From: Acidobacteriota bacterium | Lineage (GTDB): Bacteria > Acidobacteriota > UBA890 > WLXD01 | Assembly (NCBI GenBank): GCA_965205505.1 | Contig: CBDBHB010000009.1 | Coordinates: 1,856,001 to 1,920,000, forward strand | Direction: 5' to 3' | Length of the DNA stretch: 64,000 bases | Part shown: piece by piece, positions 24,890-46,221 of the stretch | Layout: every line of letters begins with the position of its first letter | How positions within the stretch are numbered: position 1 is the first letter of the stretch | The notes under the pieces: model-generated | What the model was told of the DNA's origin: nothing | Seen by the model: only the letters and a program-made list of their open reading frames with translations | The model's database searches: none | Made by a program: the position numbers and the translations under genes

Positions 24890-26185
24890 ATGCCCCCAAT
24901 AATGCTGACGCGAACTGCGACCGTCGCCCTGGCTTTCGGCTTCGCGATGCTGCTGGTGCCAGCGTCGGGTGCGAGCCCGGCGCCGCAACCGACGGCTTCG
25001 ATTGCTGGCCAGGAGACCGGGACGCGTCGCGTCGTCGCGGTGGGCGACATCCACGGCGCCTACGACGAGCTGGTTTCGGTGCTTCAAGTTGCGGGCATCG
25101 TCGACGACGATCTGAAGTGGAGCGGCGGCGACACCGTGTTCGTTCAGACGGGCGACTTCATGGACCGCGGTGCCGGCGTGCGCCAGGTGATGGACTTGCT
25201 GATGCGGCTACAAGGGGAGGCGCCCGACTCCGGTGGCGAGGTGGTCGTGTTGCTCGGCAACCACGAGGTCATGAACCTGATCGGCGAGTTTCGCGACGCG
25301 ACCGACGAGCAGATGGCGAGGTTTTCCGGCGGTGAGGACGCGGACGACGTTCTCGATAGTGCATGGGACGAGCTGCAGCGCGTAATCGAGTCAACGTCGA
25401 CCGGTAGGATGTCGTCCCGGCGGCGTCGCGATCTGCGCAACAGCTGGCAGGAGAACACATCGGCCGAACGTATTGCATATGTCCGCGCCCTCGGACCGGG
25501 TGGGTCGTATGGCGCCTGGCTCAGGACCCTGCCCTTGTCTGCCACGATCGACGGCATCGTCTTTATGCACGCCGGTGTGGCGCCCGAGCACTCCGGACGA
25601 GGGCTCGAGGTTCTCAACCAGCGGGTTGCCGCCGAGATTGCCGCCCTTGACGCGTACAGGGAGGCACTGCTAGAGGCTCGCCTGGTGACCTCGTTCGGGG
25701 AGCTGAGGGATGTCATACGGGCTGCCATGCAACAGACCGGTGGGCTCGAGTGGCTCGACCGCGCGAAAACAGGTCTGCCGGAGCTTTCGGGTGCGAGCGG
25801 TGATTCTGAGGACGACAAGAGGGCCTGGTATGAAGCGCTTTTTCGCATTCAGCAGTGGTACGTGCTGGCTGAGCGCGGCCCCTTGTGGTTTCGCGGGTTG
25901 GTGGCCTTGTCGGATCCGGATCACGCAGCGGTGCTCGAGGCGGTTCTTGGCGCCCTGGGGGCGCGGGCGATCGTCATCGGGCACACGCCGCAGGCCGATG
26001 GCATTGTCTCAAGGTTCGACGGCCGGCTGTTCATGATCGACACTGGCATGCTCGCCTCCGTGTACGAGGGGCGGCCGGCGGCACTCGAGATTGGCGGCGA
26101 GGGCGCCGCAGCCCTTTATGCCGACGGCACCCGGGTGGAGCTACAACGTCCCGCCATGCCGATAGCTGTCAGCGGCACCCGCTGA
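24890..26185 (+). CDS. Secreted metallophosphoesterase (Shewanella-like phosphatase)
   Basis: Signal peptide; GDIHG, GDFMDRG, GNHE, HAG, GPLWFRG, GHT, IDTG. Confidence 0.88.
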   Translation: MPPIMLTRTATVALAFGFAMLLVPASGASPAPQPTASIAGQETGTRRVVAVGDIHGAYDELVSVLQVAGIVDDDLKWSGGDTVFVQTGDFMDRGAGVRQVMDLLMRLQGEAPDSGGEVVVLLGNHEVMNLIGEFRDATDEQMARFSGGEDADDVLDSAWDELQRVIESTSTGRMSSRRRRDLRNSWQENTSAERIAYVRALGPGGSYGAWLRTLPLSATIDGIVFMHAGVAPEHSGRGLEVLNQRVAAEIAALDAYREALLEARLVTSFGELRDVIRAAMQQTGGLEWLDRAKTGLPELSGASGDSEDDKRAWYEALFRIQQWYVLAERGPLWFRGLVALSDPDHAAVLEAVLGALGARAIVIGHTPQADGIVSRFDGRLFMIDTGMLASVYEGRPAALEIGGEGAAALYADGTRVELQRPAMPIAVSGTR

Positions 26186-26205
26186 TCCTTACGAGGGCTC
26201 CGCAG

Positions 26206-26946
26206 ATGGAGGTGAACTGGCGCCGCCTGCTCGGCGCTCGGATGAGCCGCGAGCTCGCCGTGTGTGTGATCTCGGAGGGTGTTGGGACGTTTTTCCTCAC
26301 CTTCATGGTGGCGGCGGCGATCTGCACCGACTCCTACAGCGGCGGCCAGCTTGGCATTGTGGGGATAGCGCTGGCTCATGGGCTGACGTTGGCGGCCATC
26401 GTCAGCTCGCTTGGCCACGTGTCCGGGGCGCACGTCAATCCGGCGGTAACGTTGGGGGCGCTACTCGTGCGAGCTATTGAGCCGTCGCGAGCTCTCGCTT
26501 ACTTCGGAGCTCAGCTGATGGGAGCGCTCGTTGCCGGCCTGATGCTGGCGGCGACCTTCGGCGCCGACGTGTGGCAGCCTGTGCACCTCGGCGCGCCGGC
26601 GTTGGGATTCGGCGTGGCGGTGGGGACGGGCGTGTTCTTGGAGATGATACTGACGCTCGTGTTGGTGTTCGTAGTCCTGCAGATGGCGGCCGACCGGCGT
26701 GCTCCACGGCATGTGCACGGCTTGGTTATAGGTGCCACGCTGGGGGCCGCCGTGCTCGTCGGTGGTCCCTTGACGGGGGCTGCCCTCAACCCCGCCCGCG
26801 CCTTCGGGCCGGCCCTCGCCGCCGGGTACTGGGCTTCCCACTACGTATACTGGCTGGGGCCGCTGCTCGGCGGTGTGGTCGCGGCGGTGTTGAACGGCTA
26901 TCTCAGCTCTGGTGAGTCGATGAGCTTGGGTGAGGACGGGGAATGA
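26206..26946 (+). CDS. Major intrinsic protein (aquaporin)
   Basis: Two NPA motifs (SGAHVNPAVT, ALNPARAFGP); alternative start at 26242. Confidence 0.92.
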   Translation: MEVNWRRLLGARMSRELAVCVISEGVGTFFLTFMVAAAICTDSYSGGQLGIVGIALAHGLTLAAIVSSLGHVSGAHVNPAVTLGALLVRAIEPSRALAYFGAQLMGALVAGLMLAATFGADVWQPVHLGAPALGFGVAVGTGVFLEMILTLVLVFVVLQMAADRRAPRHVHGLVIGATLGAAVLVGGPLTGAALNPARAFGPALAAGYWASHYVYWLGPLLGGVVAAVLNGYLSSGESMSLGEDGE

Positions 26947-28358
26947 GAAGGGTGGCCGCGGTGGCAACCATGGCGCTCTCGGGACTGGTGGTGGCCTGCT
27001 CGGCGGGCGCTCCAGAGATGACGGTACCGCAGCGACTGGTGCTGATCACCATCGACACGTTGCGCGCTGACCACATGTCGAGCTTCGGCTATCCGATTGC
27101 CACGACGCCGTTCCTGGATCGACTGGCAGCGGAAGGGACACTATTCACGCGTGCCTATGCCCATTCCGCGACCACCAAGCCCTCGCATTCGTCGATGTTC
27201 ACGTCGCTGTATCCAGTGCAGCACCGCGTCCAGAACAACGGTCTGGTTCTCGACGAGGAGTTCGAGACGATGGCAGAGCTACTAGGTGCAGCCGGGTATG
27301 CGACGGCGGCGTTCGTGAGCACGGACGCGCCGCTGGGAGGCAACGTCAGACAGGGCTTCGAGGAATGGGATCAGCATCGGGTCGACCGCGAGATGGAGGG
27401 CGGGCGCAAGCTGTACCGTGACGCGGGCGACACCGTCGATCGTGCACTGGCTTGGGTCGGCGAGGCGGTCGCTGACGGTCGAGAGAGCTTCTTTCTATGG
27501 GTCCATGTGTACGATCCCCACAAGCCGCTGCAGCCGCCGGACGAGGTTCTCGAGGAGGTCGAGGGCATGATCGCCGAGCTCGGCGAGCAGGCGTATCGTG
27601 ATCTGCTGGTGAGCCGTGGCATTCCGGCCGCCGACGAGGATAGCGGGGCGCGCACCGATGTGGCCGCTTATGACGCCGAGATCATGTATGCAGATCGGCA
27701 GCTGGCACGCTTGTTTGCGCACTTCGACGCCGCCGGCCTCAACGACGAGGCAGTTTGGATTGTCACCTCGGATCATGGCCAGGGGCTCGGCGCTCATGAT
27801 TGGTTCGGGCATTCCAAGCAGATATACAACGCCCAGCTCTGGGTGCCGTTGCTGTTCTGGCGCGCCGACGGCGCGGCAGGGATTCGCGTGCACGAGCGCG
27901 TCGTTCAACATGTCGACATGTTACCGACGGTGGCGGCGATCTTCCAGCTGACCCCAAACCAGATCATGCCCATGCAGGGCCGATCTCTTACGCAGTATCT
28001 GGGCGGCGGCCGACCACGCGATGCCGGATGGTTTGCCTTCGCCGAGCGTAGCTACTACGAGGATGCCTCGATGCGGCGGCAGCAGCGTGGCAACTATGAG
28101 GCCGGCGAGCGCTACGCGATCCAAGACATCGAATACAAGTACCTTCGCTACGAAGAGGGCGCCGACGAGTTCTATGACCTGCGCAGTGACCCGTATGAGC
28201 TGGTCAACTTGATCGCCGCCCCGGAACTCGCGGAGCGGCGCGATCAGATGCGCGACGTGCTGGCCTCTTTGTTAGAGAACATGCCGAGCGAGCGCGAGGC
28301 GCAGACCGTGTCGCCGGAAGACCTGGCGCGCTTGCGCGACCTCGGGTACTTGCAGTAG
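26943..28358 (+). CDS. Sulfatase-like lipoprotein with Thr at the catalytic position and C-terminal LRDLGYL tail
   Basis: Lipobox VVAC, ITIDTLRADH, TKPSHSSMFT, DPH, SDHG, DPYELVN. Confidence 0.85.
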   Translation: MRRVAAVATMALSGLVVACSAGAPEMTVPQRLVLITIDTLRADHMSSFGYPIATTPFLDRLAAEGTLFTRAYAHSATTKPSHSSMFTSLYPVQHRVQNNGLVLDEEFETMAELLGAAGYATAAFVSTDAPLGGNVRQGFEEWDQHRVDREMEGGRKLYRDAGDTVDRALAWVGEAVADGRESFFLWVHVYDPHKPLQPPDEVLEEVEGMIAELGEQAYRDLLVSRGIPAADEDSGARTDVAAYDAEIMYADRQLARLFAHFDAAGLNDEAVWIVTSDHGQGLGAHDWFGHSKQIYNAQLWVPLLFWRADGAAGIRVHERVVQHVDMLPTVAAIFQLTPNQIMPMQGRSLTQYLGGGRPRDAGWFAFAERSYYEDASMRRQQRGNYEAGERYAIQDIEYKYLRYEEGADEFYDLRSDPYELVNLIAAPELAERRDQMRDVLASLLENMPSEREAQTVSPEDLARLRDLGYLQ

Positions 28359-28359
28359 T

Positions 28360-28370
28360 CAGGCCACTAG
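28360..28370. repeat. Family A MITE end remnant CAGGCCACTAG between convergent stop codons
   Basis: Identical to the last 11 bp of element A (51977-51987). Confidence 0.5.
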
Positions 28371-29206
28371 ATGGTTACCCCGAAGCGTCCCTTTAGGGCG
28401 AAGGCGAGGGCAATCGTCAAGATGAAGAAAACGATCAGCCAGTCGGTCTCGAAGCCGAGAACACCGACAGCACGCGTCGGGTAGATAACCTCGATCTCGA
28501 TGATAGCCCCGTCGCGGGGTAGGGAAGGCTCGGCCGGGTACAGCAGCGAATTCAAGAACCCAGGCTTGAGCCTATAGGGCGATCGACGCACGACAGCGTC
28601 GGACACCACGATCCGCTTGGTGACGCGTTGGCCGGCGGCTTCGATCTGTACCTCGAAGTTACCTGGGCTGTCGGCCACGATCCGCCAGGCGAGCTGATTT
28701 CGCGCCGGTATCCAGACGCGCGGGCTGTCGAGCCGTAGACCGGCGGGCAAGCTCACGGCGGACTCTGGAGCGGTGCTGGTGGCTAGTCCGTCATCGAGGC
28801 TCACCTGCAGAACGGTCTGCTCGCCAACCGTGAGGCCCCGATACGCGTAGTGGAATTGCAGCTGGGCAATGACCAAGACGAACGGCACTATCATGAACAC
28901 CATCGGCACCAGGTTCAGGCCGAGATAGGTCATGTTGTCGCGCAGGATGCCGCCCTGAGCACGCAGGATCGCCACGATGTCGTCGTTGAACAGGCGGATC
29001 TCGAACAGGCCGGCGGCGATCTTGCGCTTGACGCGCTCAATCGCCGGCTGGTTGGAGGTGGCGCGGTATCCGAGCAACATCAGCACCGAGCAGCCCAGCG
29101 ACACTATCGTCAGCCCGACCATCGGGTGTAGCTGCCGAAAGGGCAACAGCATCAGGTCGAATAGGGGGCGCAATAGCCCGTTCACAGCGCCGAGAATGGC
29201 GTTCAT
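28367..29206 (-). CDS. Three-TM membrane protein, DUF106/EMC3/TMCO1 (Oxa1 superfamily)-like topology
   Basis: Amphipathic N-helix, TM1, charged helical hairpin, TM2 (PMVFMIVPF), soluble beta-rich region, C-terminal TM3 (WLIVFFIL..LKGRFGV). Confidence 0.6.
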   Translation of the reverse strand: MNAILGAVNGLLRPLFDLMLLPFRQLHPMVGLTIVSLGCSVLMLLGYRATSNQPAIERVKRKIAAGLFEIRLFNDDIVAILRAQGGILRDNMTYLGLNLVPMVFMIVPFVLVIAQLQFHYAYRGLTVGEQTVLQVSLDDGLATSTAPESAVSLPAGLRLDSPRVWIPARNQLAWRIVADSPGNFEVQIEAAGQRVTKRIVVSDAVVRRSPYRLKPGFLNSLLYPAEPSLPRDGAIIEIEVIYPTRAVGVLGFETDWLIVFFILTIALAFALKGRFGVTI

Positions 29207-29227
29207 CGTGATGTGCTCGTTGTCAGG

Positions 29228-29422
29228 TCAGGAAATGTAGCCGAGACCCTGGAGCTTCTTGCGGATATCCTCTTCGGAGTCGGCCTCCTCCAGGACGGCG
29301 AGCTCCTTCTCAAGCGCATAGGTGATGAACTCCTCGACCGAGGAGTATCCGGCTATGTCCGCATACTTCCTGACGCGGTTGAGTAAACCACTGTCCAGTT
29401 TGATCTTGCCGCCTCCGAACAT
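29228..29422 (-). CDS. Small ribbon-helix-helix (CopG-like) protein with C-terminal LQGLGYI tail
   Basis: IKLD..LLNRV..GYSSVEEFITYAL pattern; in operon. Confidence 0.75.
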   Translation of the reverse strand: MFGGGKIKLDSGLLNRVRKYADIAGYSSVEEFITYALEKELAVLEEADSEEDIRKKLQGLGYIS

Positions 29423-29459
29423 CCTTCATCTCCTGTTACCGGACACTAGGGACAGACCG

Positions 29460-31451
29460 TCAATTCGTCTCAACCGTCACCGGGGTGCTGCCGTCCGGGA
29501 AGCCGTCGATGCCGTACTCGGCGAGCAGAGATGCTGCCAGGTTCTGCAGCGACGACGCCGGGCGCGCCAGAGCGCGGCTGGTTAGCAGCACGCCCGGAAC
29601 CGCCGCCGGGTCCCAGATGTGGTCGCCTGACCAATCGTCGGTGTTGTCGGTAATGAACTCCGCTTCCAGCCCGCCGAGAGCGCCGTTGCCAGAACCACGC
29701 ACGTGCGGTGCGTAGCCGACGATGATGTCGGGCCCTATCTCCAGATGGCCGCGGTCGTGGAAGTCGCGTTCACGAATGAACACTCGTGTGATGGCCGGTT
29801 CACCGGTGGCCGGATCCACGGTGGCCAGCAAGTCACGTTCGAGCTGGAGGAGCAACTCGTCGCGGTCGCCGGGCGCCACCAGGCCCTGTGACTCACGGCC
29901 ACGAATGTTCAAGTACAGGGCGCTGATGCCGACACTGTACGCCTGAGTGGCGTTCCAGTCGACGCCGCCGAAGAACTCCCGAATAGGTAGTCGCGTGCGG
30001 CGCTGCAGCGCCATGTAGCCGTTCTCGTGCAGCCATGTGTTGAGGTTGAACGACCGGCGCCAGCTGCCAAACCCGTGGTCCGACATGATGACCAACAAGG
30101 TGTCGTCGGAGATGCGATCCAGCGTGTGGCCGACCAGCGCGTCGAACTCCTCGTACAGGCTCGGAATGATGTCACGATACCGGTCGTGGCTCTCGGCCAC
30201 GTATGCCGGGTGCTCCGGGTCGCGCGTCAAGCCCCACATGACATGCGAGATTTGGTCGGCGCTACCGAAATACGAGAACAGAAAGCCGCCGTTCCAGTTC
30301 TCCAGGAGATGCTTGTACTGTGCCGTCGTCTCGTCGCGGGTGAGCGTGACCTGCGTGAGGAACTCGTCGAGGTCGAAGACGCCCCACTGGAGTGCCTTGG
30401 TGTCCTGCGGCATCTCCTGCGTGTAGTAGCGGCCGGTGGCGTTGCCCAGCTCGGTGGCGAACGAGTCTGGGTGCGAGATCGCCGACCCAGGGTTGAGAGG
30501 GTCTATCTGAATCGGCGTGACGTAGAGGCCGAAGTCCTGACGCACCGACTTGAGGTAGAAGCGCACCGCGCCCGAGATCGACATTACGTAGGGCACGAGA
30601 TCGAAGTCGGCACTGACCCAGGGGCTCCACTCGCCCTCCTGCAGGATGAGCTCTTGGTCGTTGATCACGATCTTCACAACGGGGTTGTCGGGATCGATAA
30701 ATACCTCGAAGTCGGCTCCCACCGCATCGCCCTCTTCCAGTGTAAAGGGGTTGTCGGTGAGGGCGTACAGGGTTCCGCTGAACACGCCATCGATGATGTC
30801 GGCGGGGTAGATATGCCCGCCCGACACGTCGGTCTTCATGAATTGGCGGCGATCGGTGGAGAAGAACGTAAACTCGCCGGGCGTGCCGCCGAGGTCCGGC
30901 GTCCCCATGCCCGAGAGCTCGCGGGCGCCGGCGCCCACGGGCGGAAAGTTGGCAGGCATCCGTATGAGAGTGCTGTCGATTCCGTTGTCGGTAAGCAATT
31001 GCCAGAACGGTGTGCCGTACCGCGCCAGTTGGATGTCACCGCCGCTGAGAGGGAAGGACCAGCCGCCAAGCGTGAGCGACCTGCCCACCGGGGTCTCCTT
31101 GGTCATCGCTTGATAAGGCCAACCGAAGGGCAGCGGCGGATCACGCTCGAGGTCACGATGCAGGAAGTCGTAGATCCCATGACCGCCGGAGTCCATGCCG
31201 GTGATGAAGTTCGACCAGGCCACCGGACTTTGTGGGGTCAGCGACGTTTCCAGGGGCGCGAAGGTGCCAGAGTCCGCGAGCCGTTTGAAGTTCGGCAAGC
31301 GGCCGGCGTCGATAAGCTCCTGCGTCAGGGTGTAGTCGAGCCCGTCGATCCCCAGCACGATGACGTTCGGTCCGTCTGATCTCGGTCCGCCGCCGCAGGC
31401 GCTGATCGTCGATACGACCAGCAGCAGACTCCACAGCATGGCGGATCGCAT
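29460..31451 (-). CDS. Nucleotide pyrophosphatase/phosphodiesterase-family (AlkP superfamily) lipoprotein
   Basis: Lipobox ISAC, VLGIDG, PQSPVAWSNFITG, SDHGF, WSGDH; start reset to MRSAM. Confidence 0.85.
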   Translation of the reverse strand: MRSAMLWSLLLVVSTISACGGGPRSDGPNVIVLGIDGLDYTLTQELIDAGRLPNFKRLADSGTFAPLETSLTPQSPVAWSNFITGMDSGGHGIYDFLHRDLERDPPLPFGWPYQAMTKETPVGRSLTLGGWSFPLSGGDIQLARYGTPFWQLLTDNGIDSTLIRMPANFPPVGAGARELSGMGTPDLGGTPGEFTFFSTDRRQFMKTDVSGGHIYPADIIDGVFSGTLYALTDNPFTLEEGDAVGADFEVFIDPDNPVVKIVINDQELILQEGEWSPWVSADFDLVPYVMSISGAVRFYLKSVRQDFGLYVTPIQIDPLNPGSAISHPDSFATELGNATGRYYTQEMPQDTKALQWGVFDLDEFLTQVTLTRDETTAQYKHLLENWNGGFLFSYFGSADQISHVMWGLTRDPEHPAYVAESHDRYRDIIPSLYEEFDALVGHTLDRISDDTLLVIMSDHGFGSWRRSFNLNTWLHENGYMALQRRTRLPIREFFGGVDWNATQAYSVGISALYLNIRGRESQGLVAPGDRDELLLQLERDLLATVDPATGEPAITRVFIRERDFHDRGHLEIGPDIIVGYAPHVRGSGNGALGGLEAEFITDNTDDWSGDHIWDPAAVPGVLLTSRALARPASSLQNLAASLLAEYGIDGFPDGSTPVTVETN

Positions 31452-31477
31452 CGTTGGCCGGCCGCCGCGAGGTGCAC

Positions 31478-33598
31478 TCAAGGCCCAGCCGAGTCGGCCT
31501 CGGCGCCCTCTTTGAAGAGCGGTCGGCCGTCCATGTAGCTGGGAGTCGGGACACCGAACTGCTGTAGCGCCGTTGGAGCGATGTCGATGAGCGCAGGATC
31601 GTCGACGTCGATGACGCGATTGCAGAACAACACTCCCGGAACGAGCCGTGGGTCGACGCAGTGGTCGCCACTCCAGGCCTTCACGTTGTCTTCGAATAGC
31701 GGCGCATCGACCACGCCGGTGGCGCAATCCCAGGAAGTACGGTAGCCGCGGTTGTACCCGATGATGAACTCGGGAGCGTTCTCGAGATACGGACCCCGGT
31801 AAAGCTGGGCGGTATCGAACGCCTCGACGATGGCCACCTCGTCGTTCTCTTCGTCCCGTAGTCCTTTGAGCTTGGTGCCGATCTCTGCTTTCAGGGAATC
31901 GACTTCAGAGCGTTCGACGATGCCCTGCGACTCGCGGCCCTTGATGTTGAAGAACATACCCGACAGCCCGAGACAGTAGGCTTTGGTGCGTGACCAGTCG
32001 ACCGCACGAAGCCACTCGGTGGTGCCGTCGGCGCCGTCCTTGAGAGCGAGGTAGCCGTTGTCGAGGAGCCACCGATTAAGGTTCAGGCCACGGCGGAACG
32101 AGGTAAAGCCGTGGTCTGATAGCACCATCAGCAGGTCATCCTCGGTGACTCTCTCCAACACCTCACCCACGAGCTTGTCGTTGCGCACGTAGAGCTCCTC
32201 GATGGTGTCGCGACAGTCGTCTTGGCTGCCGTCGTCGGCCGGATGTCCCTCCTCGATGTAGCGCCAGAACATGTGCTGGATGCGGTCGGTGGCGTCGAAC
32301 ACGCACACCAAGCAGCCGCGGCGCAACCGCTCCATCGCCGCGAAGAACATGTCCTTGCGCTCGTCGTCGATATCGAATGTGAGCTCCTTGAAGTGGCGGT
32401 CGTCGATCACCTTCTCGTTCAGTGCCCAGGTATCTTCGGCAAGCCCCAGCGTCGAGTACTTTCCCTGCATCTTCGACAGGTACACGGCATAGTAGTTGGG
32501 GTGTGAGATCGGCATCGCGGGTCGCTCCGGATCGAGCGCGATGGGCGTCATGTACATGGAGAAGTCGCCGTTCATCTCGGTCATCATGACGCGCCCGATG
32601 CCGCGCACCTTGATGCCGGGCGCCGCAGGGAAGGTCAGCGGCAACCACTCGGAAAGCTCGCCGAGGACCAAGTCGACGCTCTCGGAGCCGAAAGTGACAC
32701 GCGCGCGGCTCTCGCCGCGGTCGAGCTCGGCGATGATCGGTATCTCCAGCGGAGGGCTGCCCTTGCGAAGGATGTTCTCGGGTCCTAGCAAGGTTCCGGT
32801 GACTCGGTCGCCCTCCATGGTTACCGGCACTCGCTGGCCGCCCTCCTTGAACTTGGTGCTTTCGGGCCGGGTGGTGAAGAGCAGGAACGTGCCCTGCGTT
32901 CCGAGAAGGTCCGGGACGCACATCGCCGATAGCTGGGCGCCATAGAAACGGTCGGGTGGAAAGGTGATGGGCACCCGAAGCACGGTGCTCCAGATATTGT
33001 GTTCGCCGAGAACGCTCCAGAATGGCTTGGACTTGCGCAGAAGTCGGAGCTCCGGTTTTTCGAGCGGAATACGAAAGGGTCCCAGGCTCAGGAATCGATC
33101 GACCGAACCGATCTTGGTCGACGACAACACCGGCATGTATGTCCGGCGGTCGCGGTCGAGAAAGTCGTAGATGTTGTGCCGTGCAGGGTGAGCGCCAGTC
33201 GAAAACGACGACCAGGCTACCGGAGAGATCGACGGGAACGTCGTCTTCAATGGCTTGTAGCAGCCCATGTCGGCGAGCTTCTTGAAGTTCGGCAACTTGC
33301 CTTCGGCCATGAAGCGGTCGGTCAACTGCGGATCCTGTCCGTCGAACCCGACGACGATGAGGCGCCGGATCTTGGGCGCCACCTTCGTACGGCGCGTGAT
33401 CGCCCGCCATAAGGTGCGGAACGGCCAGATCAGCAGCGAGGCGACGACCGCCAGAATGGTCGAGAACAGCACCAGGAAGCTGCTGATGAACGCGAAGCCG
33501 GCTCCGGGACCAACGTAGGCATCGGCCACATGCGGGTAGGCCAGCACCGACAGCACGGCCAGGACGAGGCGCGATACGAACCAGGACCGCGTGCTCAC
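31478..33598 (-). CDS. NPP-family (AlkP superfamily) protein with signal peptide, AYVGPGAG motif and TM anchor
   Basis: VVGFDG, SISPVAWSSFSTG, TDRIQHMFW, SDHGF, WSGDH. Confidence 0.87.
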   Translation of the reverse strand: MSTRSWFVSRLVLAVLSVLAYPHVADAYVGPGAGFAFISSFLVLFSTILAVVASLLIWPFRTLWRAITRRTKVAPKIRRLIVVGFDGQDPQLTDRFMAEGKLPNFKKLADMGCYKPLKTTFPSISPVAWSSFSTGAHPARHNIYDFLDRDRRTYMPVLSSTKIGSVDRFLSLGPFRIPLEKPELRLLRKSKPFWSVLGEHNIWSTVLRVPITFPPDRFYGAQLSAMCVPDLLGTQGTFLLFTTRPESTKFKEGGQRVPVTMEGDRVTGTLLGPENILRKGSPPLEIPIIAELDRGESRARVTFGSESVDLVLGELSEWLPLTFPAAPGIKVRGIGRVMMTEMNGDFSMYMTPIALDPERPAMPISHPNYYAVYLSKMQGKYSTLGLAEDTWALNEKVIDDRHFKELTFDIDDERKDMFFAAMERLRRGCLVCVFDATDRIQHMFWRYIEEGHPADDGSQDDCRDTIEELYVRNDKLVGEVLERVTEDDLLMVLSDHGFTSFRRGLNLNRWLLDNGYLALKDGADGTTEWLRAVDWSRTKAYCLGLSGMFFNIKGRESQGIVERSEVDSLKAEIGTKLKGLRDEENDEVAIVEAFDTAQLYRGPYLENAPEFIIGYNRGYRTSWDCATGVVDAPLFEDNVKAWSGDHCVDPRLVPGVLFCNRVIDVDDPALIDIAPTALQQFGVPTPSYMDGRPLFKEGAEADSAGP

Positions 33599-34887
33599 TT
33601 GTCGTACTCCCGTTCAATAAGTGCGGCGATCTCGCCGATCCAGAGGTCGCCTTCGATGGGGTAGGGTGTCAAGAGGAAGGCGTCGTCGTACGTGTGCATG
33701 CCCACGAGGTCGCTGCGTCCGAATACCGCACTCGCCGCGGGGCACGCCTTGAGGTCGAACCCCGGGAAAGCGAGAGCGACAAGGTCGGGACCGCGTGCAG
33801 AGCAAGGTCCCTGTTCGTAAATGTCCGCAGCGTCGAACACCTCGCGGACGACCCGTTGCCCATCATACCGCAGCTGTTTGATCGCGTTGGCGATCTCCGA
33901 CTTGAGCGCCGGCACATCGCTTTCGGCGACGGTGCCGCGCCCAAACCGTTCGGATCGATTCAGATAGATCCGCCCCGGATCCAACGCGAACGCTCGACTC
34001 TTCGGCTCGATCGAGGTCAGGTCCGTCGGTGCCTCCGCACCGAGGGTCAGGTAGCCCAGGTTTTTCAGAGCTGCGTTCAGCTGCACCTCCTGACGAATAG
34101 CACAGAAACCGTGATCCGACAGCATCCAGAAACAGGACTCCGGATCGGTCTCTTCGGCCGCGAACCGGTCCCATATCTCGCCCACCAGGGTGTCCACATC
34201 GTGGTGGTAGTCGAGGGTTTGCTGGTGGCGCGGATGCTGCGTGTCCGTGAGGGCGTCCCAGAGGTAGTGATAGAGGCGGTCTGTGCCGGTAACCACGACT
34301 TGCAGGAAGCGCCAATCGACCTCGTCCCAGAGCCGCATCACCGCTTCGCGCCGTGTTCGAAGCGTTTGCCGCAGGTCGCGCATGAGCCAATCGTGGTCCT
34401 GGCGGCTGCGCGCGGTATCGATATCGATGCGGTAGTTCATGCGTCGCAACGGACCCAGCCACCGCAATGGCTTGACCGAGCGAGTGAGATCCACTGCAAC
34501 GAAGCCCGAGACCATGACTCCGGGAATCGAGCGAGCTGGGTAGGTTGCCGGCTGATTCAGTACAACCGAAGTTACGCCGCGGCGGCCGAGCCGGTCCCAC
34601 AAGGTCGGAACGCGCACATCGGCAAAGCTCGGGAACGTGAGCCCGTAGCTCTGAGGCTCGATATCAGTGAAGCCGTAGATCCCATGCTCGCCGGGACCCG
34701 TACCGGTCATGAAGCTCGACCAGCTCACCGAGGAGATTTCCGGCAATGAGGCGCGCATGGAGCGGAGGTGGGCACCGGCAATGCGCTCCGCCAAGCGCGG
34801 CATGACGCCGTCGTCGGCGAGGCGTCGCAGTAGCTGCTCCGGGACTCCGTCGAGCCCGATCAGACAGAGTCGCTTGCTGCGCGACAT
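33595..34887 (-). CDS. Cytoplasmic NPP-family (AlkP superfamily) protein
   Basis: LIGLDG, EISSVSWSSFMTG, TDRLYHYLW, SDHGF, GMHT; no signal peptide. Confidence 0.87.
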   Translation of the reverse strand: MSRSKRLCLIGLDGVPEQLLRRLADDGVMPRLAERIAGAHLRSMRASLPEISSVSWSSFMTGTGPGEHGIYGFTDIEPQSYGLTFPSFADVRVPTLWDRLGRRGVTSVVLNQPATYPARSIPGVMVSGFVAVDLTRSVKPLRWLGPLRRMNYRIDIDTARSRQDHDWLMRDLRQTLRTRREAVMRLWDEVDWRFLQVVVTGTDRLYHYLWDALTDTQHPRHQQTLDYHHDVDTLVGEIWDRFAAEETDPESCFWMLSDHGFCAIRQEVQLNAALKNLGYLTLGAEAPTDLTSIEPKSRAFALDPGRIYLNRSERFGRGTVAESDVPALKSEIANAIKQLRYDGQRVVREVFDAADIYEQGPCSARGPDLVALAFPGFDLKACPAASAVFGRSDLVGMHTYDDAFLLTPYPIEGDLWIGEIAALIEREYDK

Positions 34888-34906
34888 TGGCGCCCCCTGC
34901 GAGCGA

Positions 34907-35506
34907 TCAGAGGTACCCGAGCGACTCTAGCCGTGCGCGGATCGCCTCTTCTTGCTCTGGACTAGTGTGGTGGTCCTCGGCGGGCGGAACGTATCCCATG
35001 AGCTCGAGACTTCGCACGATCTTTTCCCGGCTCTCCTCCGGCGTCTCTTTCTCTGTATCGCAGACGATCTCGGGGTTAACCGGTTCCTCGTAGGGATCGG
35101 AAACGCCTGTAAAATTGGAGATCTCACCGGCCAGGGCTCGTTTGTATAGCCCCTTGGGATCCCGTCGTGCCAGCTCTTCGATACTGCAGCGTGCGTAGAC
35201 CTCGACGAAGTTCTCGATCGCTCCGCGCAGCTCATCCCGGATCTCTCGATAGGGAGAAATGGCCGCAGAGACCGCCGCCACTCCGTTGCGGCTGAGCAGA
35301 TTACAGACGTAGCCGATGCGCCGGATGTTGGTATCGCGGTCTTCCTTCGAGAAGCCGAGTCCTTTGGACAGGTTCGTTCGTACCTCGTCGCCGTCGAGGA
35401 TCTCGACCCGTAGGCCGCGTTCGAGGAGGACCCCTTCGACTGCCGTGGCCAGCGTCGACTTGCCGGAACCCGAAAGCCCTGTGAACCAGAGCGTGAAGCC
35501 CTTCAT
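34907..35506 (-). CDS. cysC: Adenylyl-sulfate kinase with C-terminal LESLGYL extension
   Basis: [37 protein letters not shown]. Confidence 0.96.
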
Positions 35507-35544
35507 CTGAGCAAACTCCTTATGATGCCTCGGTAGGTGCCGAA

Positions 35545-36714
35545 TCAGGCCACGGCGCCGGCGGTCGACCCCTGATAGTGACGTCGCAAGATCTCCGCCA
35601 CCTCGGGCCGGGTGAATTCCTTTGGCAGCTCTTCACCGCGCGCCAACATGTCGCGGATCTTCGTGCCGCTGAGGAACACGTGCTGTTCCTTGTCGTGCGG
35701 ACACGTTTTCTGCGACGCCATGTTCTCGCAAGCGTGGCAGTAGAACGCGTGGTCGAAGAAGAGCGGCGTAATGCCGATCTCGAGCGCTTCGAATTCCTCG
35801 AAGATGGTGTGCGCATCGTAGGTGCCGTAGTAGCCGCCGACGCCGGCGTGGTCGCGGCCGACGATGAAGTGCGTGCAGCCGTAGTTCTTTCTTACGATGG
35901 CGTGGAAGATGGCTTCCTTAGGGCCGGCATAGCGCATCGCTGCTGGCAGAATCGACAGAGCGACGCGTGCGTTCGGGTAGTAATTGTGCAGCAGCGCCTG
36001 GTAGCACTCGAGCCGTACGTCAGCTGGGATATCGTCCGACTTAGTCTCGCCCATGATCGGGTGAATCAACAGTGCGTCGACCAATTCGAGAGCGCACTTC
36101 TGCAGGTATTCGTGGGCGCGGTGGATCGGGTTTCGGGTCTGGAAGGCGGCGACGCTGTTCCAACCCTTGGCCTTGAACAAGACGCGGGTTTCGCGCGGAT
36201 CGAGCCGCGAGCTTTCGAAGCTGGCGTGATGCGGGCGGTGTAGCAGCGTGATTTTCCCGCCCAGGTAGGAGTTGCCGGTCGATCGCAGATATGCGACTCC
36301 GGGGTGCGCGTCATCATTCGTCTGCAGCACCTGGAGGGCCTCGTGAGCTCTATCGGGCTGGTAGACGTCGGTCAACTCGAGCACGCCGTGTAACGTACCG
36401 TCGGGCCCCTTGAGCGCTACCGGGTCGCCGATCCCGACGTCGGTTGCGGTCGCAGCATCGACCGCCAGCGTGATCGGTATCGTCCACGGCAGGCCGCCGG
36501 GCAAGCGGCCATGGGCGCATACGTGCTCGTAGTCTTCCCGTCCCATGAAACCCTCGAGCGGGCTCAAGGCGCCGGTGGCGATCATCTCCAGATCAGAGGT
36601 CTCCCGACGGTTCATGGTGACGGCGGGAAGCTTGTCGACATGGTCGAGCCACTCGGTGCGTTCGGTTGCTGATGCGAAGCGGTCAACGAGGCGCCCGCCG
36701 TGAGCTTTGATCAT
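35545..36714 (-). CDS. sat: Sulfate adenylyltransferase
   Basis: [38 protein letters not shown]; start MIKAHGG overlaps upstream TAA. Confidence 0.96.
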
Positions 36715-36929
36715 TAGAGGTATCCGAGGTTTTCTAGTTTCTTGCGGATCGCCACCAGCTCGTCCTGGCTGAGATCGGAGGACGATGCCTCCGGTTCCAG
36801 GCTCCCGACCAGGTCGCGAAGCACGAAGACGATGAAGTCGGTGGCCGAGCTGAAGCCCGACCCGTCGATCACCCGCTGCAGCCGATTGTAGAGCGGCCGG
36901 GGAATCTTGATGCTTACGCGGTCGGGCAT
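36714..36929 (-). CDS. Small ribbon-helix-helix (CopG-like) protein with C-terminal LENLGYL tail
   Basis: VSIKIPRPLYNRL..GFSSATDFIVFVLRD; TAATG coupling to sat. Confidence 0.8.
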   Translation of the reverse strand: MPDRVSIKIPRPLYNRLQRVIDGSGFSSATDFIVFVLRDLVGSLEPEASSSDLSQDELVAIRKKLENLGYL

Positions 36930-37032
36930 GGGCAACGAGGGAATGAACTGCAGTAGGGCACGAATTGGGTCCTGATCGTAACCCAATTAGAATCAGATGC
37001 AAGTCCGATCGCGGCACCGGCCGCCGCCGACG

Positions 37033-37839
37033 CTAGAAGTAGCCGCGCAGTCGTTGCACCAAGTCGTCGTGCCGGGTGCCGTTGCTCCCCAGCAGGCCGC
37101 GGCGATTCACGATGTCGTGAGGGTCATAGTCGATCGGGCGGCCGTCGAAGTCGGTGAGGCGGCCACCGGCGGCGTGCAGAATCGCCTCCGGAGCGCAGGC
37201 GTCCCAGAGCTTTGTACCGGATGCCGGCTGCAAATAGAGGTCGCAAACCCCGGTACCGATCTTGCCGATCTTCAGGCCGACGCTGCCGGACTGCAGCATG
37301 CGCGAGATGCCGAGCTCGTCTTTCATGCGCTCGACGATCTCGGGGAGGTGCGAACGACTACAGATCAACGTCAGCTCGGCGAGCTCGCTGGTCGTTCCGA
37401 CGCGCATCGTATCGACGCCATCCGGGTGCACGCGTTCCGCCCCCTCGCCGACGATGCCGCGGTAAACAGTCTCCTCCGCGGGCTGGGCGACGACGCCGAG
37501 CACTGGCGTGCCTTCTACCACCAGCCCGATCATCACGGCGAACTCCGTAAGATGGCGGGTGAACTCCTTGGTGCCATCCATCGGGTCCACCATCCAAACG
37601 CGCCGCTTGCCGACGATCGCCGCGGGGTCAGCAGATTCCTCGGCGAGAATGCCGTCGTTGGGGAAGTGCTCCTGCAGCCGCGCGACAATGTGCTCGTTGG
37701 CGGCGCGGTCGGCCTCGGTAGCGGGCTCCCCACCGGCCTTGGCCTCGACCCGATAGTCGCTTCGGTAGTAGCGCATCAGGATCTCGGACGCCTCTCGCGC
37801 GATTGTCTCGGCGAGGTCGAGGTCACGAGCAAGGGTCAT
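37033..37839 (-). CDS. cysQ: 3'(2'),5'-bisphosphate nucleotidase (inositol monophosphatase family)
   Basis: TEADRAAN, LAEE, WMVDPMDGTKEF, SRSH, GSVGLK, WDACA. Confidence 0.92.
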   Translation of the reverse strand: MTLARDLDLAETIAREASEILMRYYRSDYRVEAKAGGEPATEADRAANEHIVARLQEHFPNDGILAEESADPAAIVGKRRVWMVDPMDGTKEFTRHLTEFAVMIGLVVEGTPVLGVVAQPAEETVYRGIVGEGAERVHPDGVDTMRVGTTSELAELTLICSRSHLPEIVERMKDELGISRMLQSGSVGLKIGKIGTGVCDLYLQPASGTKLWDACAPEAILHAAGGRLTDFDGRPIDYDPHDIVNRRGLLGSNGTRHDDLVQRLRGYF

Positions 37840-43942: not shown

Positions 43943-44157
43943 TAGGAGACCTCCTGCGCGTCGAGTTTCAGCAAACCGGTCCCAGTCTAGGCAACAGCAC
44001 AGTAAGCCGGCCCGCCACACCGCGAAACGAGAGTGACCGGACGGTAGTCCGTCACATCGATCGTCGCAAGGAGTTGGCTGGCCGTGTGCCGGCCGTGTCG
44101 GGCTCCAGCGGCGAATTGCACCGGGGCCGCGCGGTGAATCTCAGGCCGCCGCCCGCG

Positions 44158-44655: not shown

Positions 44656-44678
44656 AGGCGACGTCATCGTGGCGGCGA

Positions 44679-45518: not shown

Positions 45519-45596
45519 CCTTGCTTCCCGTGCCGCAGCCTCGAACAGAAACGGCGGGCGGGAGCTCGTCGCGCCCGCCCGCCGCTGCCGAACCTG

Positions 45597-46190: not shown

Positions 46191-46221
46191 GCGATGGCCG
46201 CGTTTCGTTAGGGGCGGGCCA

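Follow-up and report, generated by a model that had tools for sequence, protein, structure and literature searches.

A gene cassette of AlkP-fold enzymes that adjoins sulfate-activation genes in Acidobacteriota, and a C-terminal tail shared by their products

Organization of the locus

The window analysed here is a 64-kb stretch of DNA (C9:1856001-1920000 in genome coordinates) from an Acidobacteriota bacterium. The locus contains the following features, numbered from the first nucleotide of the window:

26943..28358, plus strand: sulfatase-family lipoprotein, 471 aa (PF00884, E 6.6e-48)
28367..29206, minus strand: mem279, a family-less membrane protein, 279 aa
29228..29422, minus strand: RHH2, 64 aa, an RHH-like ORF ending in an LGY tail
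29460..31451, minus strand: NPP663, paralogue of NPP706 predicted to be exported (PF01663, E 4.7e-27)
31478..33598, minus strand: NPP706, NPP fold, predicted to be membrane-anchored (PF01663, E 1.1e-29)
33595..34887, minus strand: NPP430, AlkP/NPP fold, predicted to be cytosolic (PF01663, E 6.8e-31)
34907..35506, minus strand: cysC, APS kinase, 199 aa (PF01583, E 7.6e-59)
35545..36714, minus strand: sat, ATP sulfurylase, 389 aa (PF01747, E 4.1e-100; PUA_2)
36714..36929, minus strand: RHH1, 71 aa, an RHH-like ORF of CopG-like ribbon-helix-helix type
36963..36988, no strand: perfect inverted repeat AATTGGGT-N10-ACCCAATT, a candidate operator, 34 nt 5' of the RHH1 start
37033..37839, minus strand: cysQ-like candidate 3'(2'),5'-bisphosphate nucleotidase, 268 aa (inositol-monophosphatase family, PF00459, E 1.5e-53)

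Family searches confirmed the gene order (cysQ-RHH-sat-cysC-NPP-NPP-NPP-RHH-membrane protein, all on the minus strand) and the families that a preliminary description of this DNA had proposed. The array converges on the plus-strand gene for the Thr-type sulfatase-like lipoprotein, and its intergenic gaps are 19-38 nt, or are replaced by overlaps, with the single exception of 103 nt from cysQ to the RHH1 gene. Both sat (NF003166, 552 bits, cut-off 387) and cysC (NF002059, 258.3 bits, cut-off 244) score above the cut-offs of their NCBIfam models. The best model for the cysQ-like gene is CysQ TIGR01331, at 173.8 bits, below its 228.8 cut-off; this gene is kept in the same place in five related loci (L006-L010).

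Searches with PF01507, PF00685 and PF13469 retrieved no gene from the 64-kb window, in agreement with the earlier report that neither an APS/PAPS reductase nor a P-loop sulfotransferase occurs there. The characterization of the operon as lacking a canonical sulfotransferase therefore stands, but it does not extend to the genome: intact Sulfotransfer_1/_3 genes lie at three places outside the window (C9:204150, C9:524676 and C8:1190719-1191210), so that PAPS has other possible users in this organism. The source genome cannot reduce PAPS; at 96.3% completeness it yielded no PAPS/APS reductase (PF01507, CysH/CysD) and no sulfite reductase/Dsr (PF01077), in searches whose controls were positive in 14/14 and 11/14 genomes, respectively.

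Conservation of the cassette and its association with sulfate activation

The conserved core of the locus, which the preliminary description overlooked, is a four-gene cassette: NPP706, NPP663, RHH2 and mem279. Cytosolic NPP430 is a frequent fifth addition. The full cassette is present in 46 of the 50 related loci in which 6.5 kb or more follow NPP430, and all four genes were also found in 10/10 cassettes fetched from NPP430-negative genomes. Synteny extends to sulfate activation, in that sat, cysDN or cysC adjoin the cassette in a number of families and gene arrangements: cysQ-RHH1-sat-cysC-cassette, sat-NPPx-cysC-NPP430-cassette, cysD-cysN-cassette, cysQ-cysC-cysD-cysN-NPP706... and RHH1-cysC-NPP706.... 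By a hand count from place tables, at least 31 of 59 genomes have cysC no more than about 3 kb away from NPP430. In a further arrangement (L099), RHH1-NPPx-cysC-PHP-NPP430 and a signal-less sulfatase-like gene continue into a glycan cluster that encodes a Wzx flippase, an NPP, GT2, GNAT, a DegT aminotransferase, a methyltransferase and another NPP. On these observations, PAPS synthesis is linked to AlkP-fold enzymes beyond this single locus.

We also examined co-occurrence across 301 sampled Acidobacteriota genomes, in which NPP706-type proteins were called at E<=1e-180. APS kinase is encoded by 80 of the 82 genomes with an NPP706-type protein versus 118/219 without, and by 57 of the 59 NPP430 genomes versus 141/242 of the remainder; these counts take in related genomes, which overstates the contrast. 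In one exception (G221), cysD-cysN takes the place of APS kinase and immediately precedes the cassette. The locus and its cassette are, very probably, functionally tied to sulfate activation.

Such a tie could in principle be one of co-regulation only, with NPP706, NPP663 and mem279 remodelling a phosphate-containing envelope molecule, through head-group or polymer transfer or trimming that can be likened to LtaS, EptA and OpgB, while sulfate is left untouched. To our knowledge, all of the characterised NPP/AlkP transferases move phosphoryl groups, and the catalytic residues here match those of phosphodiesterases (see below). Moreover, among the 80 closest loci, a sulfate-activation gene is near in only 16 of the 61 that have at least 3 kb upstream, leaving 45/61 with none adjacent. 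Yet this explanation does not account for the excess of APS kinase in genomes with the cassette enzyme, for the repeated joining of the cassette to sat, cysC or cysDN in varied gene orders, or for the fact that RHH2, a fixed cassette member, shares its tail with CysC and CysD. We consider it quite unlikely.

Active sites and predicted locations of the encoded proteins

NPP430 lacks a signal peptide. Its AF2 model (pLDDT 91.6) has PhnA (1ei6) and ENPP1 as best Foldseek matches (TM 0.56-0.63), and seven of its residues are invariant in alignment A1: D13, S52, D203, H207, D258, H259 and H398. Ser52 occupies the nucleophile position, and no candidate residue of the bimetal site is missing. The equivalent sets are S125, D86, D438, H442, D495, H496 and H646 in NPP706 (each at least 97% conserved), and S75, D36, D399, H403, D458, H459 and H611 in NPP663 (likewise conserved), a paralogue with 36% identity to NPP706. 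Across the 20, 44 and 44 sequences aligned for NPP430, NPP706 and NPP663, respectively, the serine at the nucleophile position (S52, S125 and S75) is either invariant or conserved at 97% or more. The catalytic set of NPP430 is the same as that of phosphodiesterases, except that Ser replaces Thr and that Phe73 occupies what we take, by extending an alignment, to be the place of the NPP Asn. In NPPs this Asn contacts the transferred group, and the known chemistry of AlkP/NPP enzymes is phosphoryl transfer.

The preliminary description had predicted one cytosolic, one inner-face-anchored and one exported enzyme, and the N-terminal signals of relatives bear this out. In NPP706 a signal-like segment precedes the conserved motif YVGPGAGFAF, after which come a TM segment and a basic stretch; the same succession, with Y(I/V)GPGAGF as the motif, is found in 42 of 44 NPP706-type proteins. 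From this order NPP706 is predicted to be held at the inner side of the membrane with its catalytic domain facing the cytoplasm. NPP663 of the source genome has a lipobox. Most relatives carry a twin-arginine signal: RR-x-[FL]-[LIVM] is present in 35/44 NPP663-type proteins, and the remainder have mostly a lipobox or a Sec signal.

In the sulfatase-like lipoprotein, T78-K-P-S-H occupies the place of the formylglycine C-x-P-x-R motif, such that Thr78 replaces Cys/Ser; a search of this protein for CxPxR found none, and all NCBIfam models scored below cut-off. It ends in an LGY tail, as one of nine tail-bearing PF00884 proteins genome-wide. As for mem279, it has no match in Pfam or NCBIfam. Its first two TM segments flank a basic helical hairpin; an Ig-like domain of ~125 aa and a C-terminal TM segment follow. 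Foldseek returned Ig-like matches only for its AF2 model (pLDDT 93.9); the best VIA-wide match is chain 8 of 7tut, a multipass translocon (Z 8.9, rmsd 3.2, 136 aligned), YidC (3wo7) gives Z 7.3, and Atlas assigns PF01956 (EMC3_TMCO1) with a score of 0.86, a weak lead. The modelled protein may thus be Oxa1/TMCO1-like in look, which the preliminary description did not raise.

A shared C-terminal tail

Another element to emerge from this analysis, and one that is missing from the preliminary description, is an amphipathic C-terminal tail in which an acidic linker precedes L-x-x-L-G-Y-(I/L/M). Its carriers are CysC, CysD, the two RHH proteins, and paralogues of sulfatase-like or NPP type. In the source genome the tail occurs on 13 of 70,683 stop-to-stop ORFs (nine PF00884 proteins, one fragment, CysC, RHH1 and RHH2), four of which fall within this 11-kb locus. 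Across 93 related loci it is found on 112/14,316 ORFs: RHH2 (57), CysC (25), RHH1 (12), sulfatase-like (7), NPP paralogues (4), CysD (3), small unknown ORFs (2) and chance-like cases (2). In CysC the tail is an addition beyond the native C-terminal helix; it is present on 25/25 cysC products encoded next to NPPx or NPP430, versus 1/22 copies in NPP430-negative genomes, and that lone tailed copy is part of a sat-NPPx-cysC-PHP module.

Conservation of RHH2 is very strong, with 70% mean column identity, and its Gly-Tyr pair is invariant in 29 sequences. Three complex predictions for NPP430 with RHH2 gave ipSAE values of 0.82, 0.81 and 0.83, the best of three controls reaching 0.01; the ipSAE mark, which 58/80 solved complexes and 2/110 mismatched pairs reach, is approximate here, where our own alignments were used. 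At least 80% of contacts were common to the runs, and partner pLDDT was 76-77. The predicted interface involves tail residues 49-64 of RHH2 and, on NPP430, residues 51, 73-74, 129-133, 155-162, 203-204, 207, 380-385 and 392-394, which neighbour S52, D203, H207 and H398; Tyr62 of RHH2 contacts Phe73 and Thr74. By this prediction, the tail of RHH2 occupies the catalytic cleft of NPP430. Cassettes without NPP430 still encode a tailed RHH2 (10/10, in addition to tailed RHH2 in 57 related loci), so NPP430 would not be its only partner, and is perhaps not the principal one.

Bearing in mind this predicted pose, we considered whether the tail might itself be a substrate: the NPP-type enzymes would sulfate its tyrosine from PAPS, or strip such a group, and the tails would then serve proteins of the pathway itself as carriers of covalently bound sulfate or as switches. 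The Gly-Tyr pair, which is kept in all tail classes, the resting of the modelled tail on residues that surround the nucleophile and metal ligands, the acidic residues before the tail and the arylsulfatase-family domains among its carriers all suit this idea. However, the model contains neither metals nor ligands and cannot place a hydroxyl, basic residues lie close to the tail Tyr, unlike in known tyrosine-sulfation sites, and a protein bearing a single sulfate would serve exported enzymes poorly as a carrier. The same data are explained by a peptide that simply docks or regulates, and we regard the tail as very unlikely to be a substrate.

A possible route for sulfate to the cell envelope

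We propose that the locus encodes a dedicated sulfation system in which AlkP-fold enzymes spend PAPS on an envelope component, a reading to which we assign a probability of roughly 0.5; it would probably represent an undescribed way of adding sulfate to the cell envelope. Sat and CysC would produce PAPS and the CysQ-like enzyme would clear PAP, while NPP430, NPP706, NPP663 and the Thr-type sulfatase-like lipoproteins would spend PAPS on an envelope glycan or lipid as the putative acceptor. The cassette would set one of two paralogous catalytic domains on each side of the inner membrane, next to the Oxa1/TMCO1-like mem279. The tails may tie the parts together, namely CysC (or CysD where CysDN is used), the RHH proteins, and accessory sulfatase- or NPP-like enzymes, by inserting into an NPP-type catalytic cleft as predicted above, each tail having its own presumed partner in vivo. 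That the AlkP-fold enzymes perform the sulfuryl-transferring step, as opposed to hydrolysis alone, is in our estimate an even bet. Since PAPS is unavailable in the periplasm, the exported paralogue and the lipoprotein would depend on a donor as yet unseen. A relay of sulfate across the membrane through putative sulfo-enzyme or lipid intermediates, which topology and paralogy suggest, is speculative and in our estimate unlikely. Agl30 and Agl31 of Halobacterium salinarum are a published precedent for sulfotransferases of the AlkP superfamily (PMC11980604).

The NPP-type enzymes might instead be accessory hydrolases, acting only on PPi (thereby pulling ATP sulfurylase) or on surplus APS, PAPS or PAP, with P-loop sulfotransferases elsewhere using the PAPS and the tails tethering CysC and RHH for channelling or feedback. 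The only assayed relative known to us is an NPP-type gene within the sat/cysC cluster of Thermococcus onnurineus. One source lists that gene as a pyrophosphatase (PMC4463584), and another offers PPi degradation as speculation for its Pyrococcus yayanosii counterpart (PMC8268124). Hydrolysis would also be in keeping with the full NPP-like metal site of NPP430, with its nearest folds and with the Sulfotransfer_1/_3 genes of the source genome, and a tail in the active-site cleft suits an inhibitor or regulator equally well as a substrate. On the other hand, hydrolysis leaves unexplained the membrane-anchored paralogue, the Tat- or lipoprotein-exported paralogue and the conserved membrane protein, as well as the tails that sulfatase-like and NPP paralogues carry within a Wzx/GT glycan cluster. 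NPPx and NPP430 adjoin each other in related loci, so NPP430 cannot simply be equated with the pyrophosphatase. Furthermore, of 103 genomes that combine an AlkP module with APS kinase, 29 lack any PF00685 or PF13469 match, and of these 29, 19 also have no match to PF01507, nine have weak partial matches only and one a strong match. Two additional families were searched in the same set: 28/29 genomes had no PF17784 match, and all 29 were without a PF09037 match, although the control for PF09037 was silent too. Purely hydrolytic enzymes thus seem to us unlikely.

The RHH proteins and a candidate operator

In the proposed sulfation system, the RHH proteins would most likely bind DNA as regulators, with their tails linking transcription to enzyme state. 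A Pfam search with RHH1 gave no match, and some of its 233 homologues are named at source as CopG family or Arc/MetJ-type regulators. Its stop codon overlaps the sat start (TAATG), and its LGY tail is kept in 12 relatives. A scan for a sigma-70 consensus at the candidate operator found none. The inverted repeat occurs once in the 5.98-Mb genome, and its half-site recurs upstream of RHH1 in related loci, as an inverted repeat in L006/L007 and as direct repeats in L008-L010.

Gene content of the operon

Gene calls, together with Pfam and NCBIfam scores, bear out the gene order and family membership reported in the preliminary description: PAPS-making genes and three genes of the NPP type (PF01663) share one operon, in a genome of 5.98 Mb that is 96% complete. 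A lipoprotein gene converges on this operon from the opposite strand.

Genes of the operon region (positions in the window)
37839 down to 28367, minus strand: tightly spaced run that opens with a cysQ-like gene of the inositol-monophosphatase family, followed by RHH1, sat and cysC, three PF01663 genes, RHH2 and a membrane-protein gene, with which it ends
36714-36929, minus strand: RHH1 (RHH-like, 71 aa), directly before sat and overlapping its start
34907-35506, minus strand: cysC
33595-34887, minus strand: NPP430 (PF01663, 430 aa)
31478-33598, minus strand: NPP706 (PF01663, 706 aa)
29460-31451, minus strand: NPP663 (PF01663, 663 aa)
29228-29422, minus strand: RHH2 (RHH-like, 64 aa)
28367-29206, minus strand: mem279, membrane protein (279 aa)
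26943-28358, plus strand: sulfatase-like (PF00884) lipoprotein, convergent with the operon

Sat matches PF01747 with 333.9 bits and passes NF003166 (552 bits; cut-off 387), and CysC matches PF01583 with 198.6 bits and passes NF002059 (258.3 bits; cut-off 244). The CysQ-like protein meets PF00459 and stays below the cut-off of its best NCBIfam model, TIGR01331 (173.8 against 228.8 bits). The three NPP proteins score 108.6, 104.6 and 95.9 bits against PF01663, the cut-off being 23; none of the alkaline-phosphatase-fold (AlkP-fold) proteins of the operon attains any curated NCBIfam model. Neither RHH1 nor RHH2 has a Pfam match, and a scan for promoters and terminators returned nothing above chance. 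The gap between sat and cysC in the window is 38 nt, with no NPP gene between them.

A conserved cassette linked to sulfate activation

Relatives of NPP430 are numerous: 4579 matches at E<=1e-3 were found among 8000 scored candidates, and 564 stretches encode a relative in a one-genome-per-species collection, of which we examined the best 80. In these best 80, a set in which one Aminicenantes-type group predominates, NPP430, NPP706, NPP663, RHH2 and mem279 are found in 46 of the 50 loci having at least 6.5 kb downstream; a sulfate-activation gene lies nearby in only 16 of the 61 having at least 3 kb upstream. Other neighbours in the Aminicenantes-type loci (ADP-forming acetyl-CoA synthetase, thioredoxin-like, aminotransferase and rhamnose genes) look like lineage synteny and add nothing.

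A broader view came from an even sample of 301 Acidobacteriota genomes, 59 of which encode NPP430, 82 a strong NPP706-type match (E<=1e-180) and 198 an APS kinase. APS kinase is present in 57 of the 59 genomes with NPP430 as against 141 of the 242 without it, and in 80 of the 82 NPP706-type genomes as against 118 of the other 219; these tallies ignore kinship, which overstates the contrast, and they include the unpublished genome G048, with G023 and G146 also in the looser NPP706 tally. As to the exceptions, genome G229 does have sat, and genome G221 has neither Sat nor APS kinase, but carries cysD-cysN directly upstream of the cassette. By hand comparison of place tables, at least 31 of the 59 genomes have cysC on the strand of NPP430 and no more than about 3 kb upstream of it, a lower bound, with the place of cysC unlisted for about eight.

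We fetched 23 further loci for comparison of gene order. Among the arrangements seen were RHH1-NPPx-cysC-PHP-NPP430-sulfatase-like (NPPx being a separate NPP-type gene of related loci), sat-NPPx-cysC-NPP430-cassette, cysC-sat-NPP430, cysD-cysN-NPP430-cassette, cysQ-cysC-cysD-cysN-NPP706-NPP663-RHH2-mem279 and RHH1-cysC-NPP706-NPP663-RHH2-mem279. All ten fetched NPP430-negative loci carry the four genes NPP706, NPP663, RHH2 and mem279. The variety of these orders identifies this four-gene cassette as the conserved unit: it is often accompanied by NPP430 and has repeatedly been joined by sulfate-activation genes. An NPP-type gene stands between sat and cysC in eight related loci (L015, L024, L039, L059, L063, L101, L103 and L125), and at another locus (L099) the module runs on into a Wzx-type glycan cluster (Wzx, GT2, DegT, GNAT, methyltransferase); no glycan-assembly cluster is found in the window. 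We also noted, in a genome without NPP430, a strong PAPS_reduct-family gene (CysH/CysD type; G242:C1:1189769-1190275) about 4 kb from an NPP663/NPP706 pair, possibly another linkage of cysD to the cassette. Taken together, there is a strong case that sulfate activation is functionally tied to the AlkP-fold enzymes: in the Acidobacteriota sampled, a PAPS-making module is wired to them.

The fate of PAPS

The genome that contains the window has no PAPS_reduct-family gene (CysH/CysD) and no NIR_SIR sulfite reductase, in searches for which both controls rang in most reference genomes. The absence of these reductases argues against assimilation or respiration of the activated sulfate by known routes. 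The preliminary description had also noted the lack of a canonical sulfotransferase in the operon and the window. That stands for the operon, where none of ten proteins of the region has a Pfam match to a P-loop sulfotransferase domain (Sulfotransfer_1/_3); it does not stand for the genome, which encodes Sulfotransfer_1/_3 proteins at three places far outside the window, with at least two intact stand-alone genes. A possible PAPS consumer other than the AlkP-fold enzymes is present here and, for the families searched, not always elsewhere: no Sulfotransfer_1/_3 match was found in 29 of the 103 sampled genomes that have both the AlkP module and an APS kinase. In these 29, PAPS_reduct matches are absent from 19, weak and partial in 9 and strong in 1, and 28 have no Sulfotransfer_4 match either. 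Two other searches are uninformative: Stf0-type PF09037 matched 0 of the 29 with its control equally silent, and PF03567 gave no match in the window's own genome with a control that rang nowhere.

The sulfotransferase genes outside the window bear on the main rival explanation, in which the AlkP-fold enzymes of the operon are accessory hydrolases and ordinary sulfotransferases carry out the sulfation. Such a division of labour accounts for the cytosolic NPPs, but it leaves unexplained those that are exported or membrane-bound, the glycan-cluster context, and the genomes in which no ordinary sulfotransferase of the families searched was found. The best, albeit unproven, reading is that the AlkP-fold enzymes themselves transfer sulfate.

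Active-site residues and topology of the NPP enzymes

In NPP430, the invariant residues D13, D203, H207, D258, H259 and H398 make up a complete candidate two-metal set (Asp; Asp/His; Asp/His; His), and NPP706 and NPP663 have equivalent conserved residues; the ligands are candidates in all three proteins, their assignment being drawn from homology. Alignment to the structure 7mw8, along with family alignments, puts Ser52 (NPP430), Ser125 (NPP706) and Ser75 (NPP663) at the nucleophile position. In Foldseek, the nearest solved folds to NPP430 are PhnA (1ei6; E 1.4e-15, TM 0.63), ENPP1 (4gtw; TM 0.58) and Xac NPP (7mw8; TM 0.56); a profile search of solved structures gave only marginal NPP/PhnA matches, none below E 1e-4. 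The window's NPPs thus resemble Xac NPP, ENPP1/3 and PhnA in their PF01663 membership, candidate two-metal residues and fold (TM 0.56-0.63), but they are only 12-16% identical to them and have Ser, not Thr, at the nucleophile position. Moreover, NPP706 and NPP663 have an extra insertion of about 230 aa, and extension of the 7mw8 alignment sets Phe73 of NPP430 opposite the NPP Asn, which makes contact with the phosphoryl group during transfer.

NPP430 has no signal peptide. In 42 of 44 NPP706-type proteins, a signal-like segment and a conserved Y(I/V)GPGAGF motif lead into a transmembrane (TM) segment and then a basic stretch, an arrangement that points to a cytoplasmic catalytic domain. Most NPP663-type proteins (35 of 44) have a twin-arginine motif, and a lipobox or Sec signal is found in most of the others, that of the window included. 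Bearing in mind that NPP706 and NPP663 are paralogues (36% identity), these signals place related catalytic domains on opposite sides of the inner membrane. The start of the membrane segment of NPP706 (residues 27-41; gene 31478-33598, minus strand) reads A-Y-(I/V)-G-P-G-A-G-F-A-F and is near-invariant in 44 sequences; conservation so far beyond the needs of an anchor suggests a possible intramembrane contact site. Recoding in the NPP663-type genes was considered and rejected: the reported internal stops are natural gene ends that the alignment overruns by a few residues.

A shared C-terminal tail

One and the same C-terminal tail is found on CysC, RHH1, RHH2 and the sulfatase-like lipoprotein: an acidic stretch that leads into h-(R/K)-x-x-L-x-x-L-G-Y-(I/L). 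The genome has this tail on 13 of 70,683 stop-to-stop ORFs: these four, eight further PF00884 proteins and one ORF of 109 aa. The last of these (G000:C9:776801-777130, on the window's own contig; locus L094) has no family match; immediately upstream, in a different open frame, is a PF01663/PF00884-like fragment (C9:777312-777419). Probably the ORF is the terminal part of a sulfatase-like gene that has been frameshifted or broken. Among the ORFs of 93 related loci, 112 of 14,316 carry the tail, namely 57 RHH2, 25 CysC, 12 RHH1, 7 sulfatase-like proteins (some without a signal peptide), 4 further NPP paralogues, 3 CysD, 2 small unknown proteins and 2 chance-like cases. It is absent from Sat, CysN, NPPx, NPP430, NPP706, NPP663, the pAp phosphatases and mem279. 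Every cysC gene of the 93 loci (25 of 25) has the added tail, as compared with 1 of 22 copies from NPP430-negative genomes (20 stand-alone-size cysC loci, hand-picked and not random), and that single copy is inside a sat-NPPx-cysC-PHP module.

Several ordinary APS kinases (in loci L111-L130) have a native C-terminal helix that already ends in L-x-x-x-(N/R)-G-(Y/F/I)-(L/I), and the module-linked CysC, as in the window (34907-35506, minus strand), has a similar motif again after an acidic linker. This repetition suggests that the tail may have originated by duplication of the native C-terminal helix of APS kinase. The tail offers a testable handle, a peptide of about 15 residues with a predicted binding cleft, by which members of the system could be found in any genome and the complex pulled out.

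Predicted docking of the tail on NPP430

A complex of NPP430 (alignment of 20) with RHH2 (alignment of 29) was predicted with scores of 0.82, 0.81 and 0.83, against 0.00-0.01 for three controls; these scores express model confidence and are not measurements. In calibration of the tool, 58 of 80 solved complexes and 2 of 110 mismatched pairs reached the mark, a guide that is rough here, with our own alignments used. The runs have at least 80% of their contacts in common and a partner pLDDT of 76-77, and we know of no solved complex of the NPP-tail kind that the predictor could have remembered. In the model, RHH2 contacts NPP430 solely through its tail (residues 49-64), which faces residues 51, 73-74, 129-133, 155-162, 203-204, 207, 380-385 and 392-394, in the surroundings of the Ser52 nucleophile and the candidate ligands D203, H207 and H398. 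NPP430 as the sole hub for all tails was an idea that we dropped, because the RHH2 tail is kept in 10 of 10 cassettes without NPP430. Its persistence makes it more likely that RHH2 usually partners the cytoplasmic part of NPP706, or else any one of the NPP clefts.

RHH1 as a probable autoregulator

At 34 nt upstream of RHH1, and nowhere else in the genome, there is a perfect inverted repeat, AATTGGGT-N10-ACCCAATT (36963-36988). Relatives keep its half-site ahead of RHH1: loci L006 and L007 have it as an inverted repeat, and it forms direct repeats in L008-L010. Source annotations name RHH1 homologues as CopG-family or Arc/MetJ regulators. The palindrome, a candidate operator, and the CopG naming suggest that RHH1 is probably an autoregulator with a tail that reports on the enzyme. 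In some RHH antitoxins and regulators, a C-terminal tail occupies the partner enzyme. The likeness, which we offer only as an analogy, lies in the small RHH-like N-terminal part, the flexible acidic linker, the short C-terminal helix that is predicted in the partner's active-site cleft, and the candidate palindromic operator upstream of RHH1. On the other hand, the tail described here is also found on enzymes (CysC, CysD, sulfatase-like and NPP-like), and the partner here is no toxin but an AlkP-fold enzyme of metabolism.

The sulfatase-like lipoprotein and mem279

The lipoprotein scores 164 bits against PF00884 and has T78-K-P-S-H where formylglycine sulfatases have C-x-P-x-R; neither CxPxR nor SxPxR occurs anywhere in its sequence, and Thr likewise occupies the nucleophile position in the aligned tail-bearing PF00884 paralogues. 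No NCBIfam sulfatase model scores above its cut-off, and the protein is far under every NCBIfam EptA/MCR cut-off. Its gene is the last of a head-to-tail run (24890-28358, plus strand) with a calcineurin-like phosphoesterase and a MIP/aquaporin-family channel, with 4 nt of overlap between the stop of the channel gene and its own start; in loci L006-L009 the cassette still has the phosphoesterase and MIP genes at its side, including where the sulfatase-like gene is absent. Just upstream of this run are glpK and glpD (18772-21824).

The model of mem279 (pLDDT 93.9) has a TM segment, a basic helical hairpin, a second TM, an Ig-like domain and a last TM. The protein has no Pfam or NCBIfam match, and its Foldseek matches are to the Ig-like part only. 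An independent whole-bank structure search was topped by chain 8 of 7tut, a ribosome-multipass-translocon entry (Z 8.9, rmsd 3.2, 136 residues aligned), which we take to be TMCO1; the same search gave Z 7.3 for YidC (3wo7), and Atlas gave a weak lead to PF01956 EMC3_TMCO1 (0.86). The TM, basic hairpin and further TMs of the model recall the Oxa1/YidC/EMC3/TMCO1 superfamily, from which mem279 differs in having no sequence-family match and an Ig-like domain inserted before its last TM. Since these Z scores are within the range of unrelated helical proteins, kinship to this superfamily is only a lead.

Comparison with known systems

The RHH-sat-(NPP)-cysC core is already known, as the published 'sulfate assimilation' cluster of Thermococcales and other archaea, for which the relevant passages describe copG, ATP sulfurylase, a DHH pAp phosphatase, a type I phosphodiesterase/nucleotide pyrophosphatase and APS kinase (P. 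yayanosii PYCH_17520-17560, T. onnurineus TON_1704-1707; PMC8268124, PMC4463584). According to the same passages, neither a reductase nor a sulfotransferase was recognised in the hosts; the NPP-type gene is listed as a pyrophosphatase in T. onnurineus (PMC4463584), and in P. yayanosii a role in PPi degradation is termed speculation (PMC8268124). So far as these passages go, the archaeal cluster and our operon have in common an RHH (CopG-like) gene directly before sat, and sat and cysC together with a PF01663 gene and a pAp phosphatase; loci related to the window also share the sat-NPPx-cysC core. The window differs in that no NPP gene separates sat from cysC, three other NPP subfamilies follow cysC, two of these are membrane-bound or exported, a second RHH gene and a membrane protein are added, and the candidate pAp phosphatase is CysQ-like instead of DHH.

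There is one genetic precedent for sulfotransferases of the AlkP superfamily: Agl30 (VNG1056C) and Agl31 (VNG1057C), N-glycan sulfotransferases of Halobacterium salinarum, one membrane-linked and one soluble, that are encoded in the aglB cluster (PMC11980604). As reported in the passages available, their deletion removes sulfate from a lipid- or protein-linked glycan, and expression in another host adds it (PMC11980604). They share the superfamily with the operon's enzymes, but are archaeal and sulfatase-like, not NPP-type; these passages describe no tail, RHH genes or paired cytoplasmic and exported paralogues and name no sulfate donor, and 'PAPS' occurs 0 times in the main text. Beyond PMC11980604, our literature search found nothing on NPP-type sulfotransferases or on the LGY tail. 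If the operon's enzymes are indeed transferases, they would form a large, unannotated class of sulfotransferases, extend this single archaeal precedent (Agl30, Agl31) to bacteria and to the NPP clade, and explain the orphan sat/cysC clusters of many uncultured lineages.

A possible trans-envelope relay

Sulfation of bacterial envelope glycans and lipids is thought to rely on cytoplasmic P-loop sulfotransferases, and we know of no organism with a PAPS-fed sulfation pathway that acts outside the cytoplasm; the module touches on how sulfate could be added beyond the inner membrane. LtaS, EptA/MCR and OpgB are AlkP-fold transferases of the membrane's outer face, where there is no nucleotide donor: PF00884 domains on polytopic anchors, they use a Ser/Thr nucleophile and a lipid donor to transfer phospho-head groups. 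None of them, to our knowledge, pairs with a cytoplasm-facing paralogue or is tied to PAPS synthesis; by analogy, they offer a model for how NPP663 and the lipoprotein could act outside the cytoplasm.

The speculative trans-envelope relay that the preliminary description proposed fits the paired paralogues and the membrane protein. In the version that we envisage, CysC and NPP430 would feed NPP706, on the cytoplasmic side, by tail docking, and NPP706 would transfer the sulfate of PAPS or APS to a carrier in the membrane. If that carrier were polyprenyl phosphate, for example, the product would be a lipid phosphosulfate, the membrane counterpart of APS. The Oxa1/TMCO1-like mem279 would help the head group to cross the membrane; exported NPP663, and likewise the tail-bearing Thr-type sulfatase-like lipoproteins, would unload the sulfate onto periplasmic or surface acceptors. 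The LGY tails would be docking arms by which donors and transferases gather around NPP-type hubs on both membrane faces, and might even carry sulfate on their tyrosine. That activated sulfate does cross the inner membrane by way of NPP706, mem279, NPP663 and the tails we regard as improbable, at roughly one chance in eight.

Other features near the operon

An IS110/IS116/IS902-family transposase ORF (PF02371; 41705-42472, minus strand) lies a few kb from the operon. The window also contains a Tol-Pal cluster (44074-48382: TolB, an OmpA-family Pal-like protein, a YbgF-like TPR protein and a TonB_2 domain protein) and an OmpH/Skp gene (40377-40922), and OmpH is again found a few kb from the cassette in the Aminicenantes-type locus L018. 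Large MacB-like FtsX permeases of about 900 aa recur: one is in the window (15992-18727, plus strand), and two more are elsewhere in the same genome (L108:3970-6678 and L110:3658-6325), each adjoining a canonical sulfotransferase gene.
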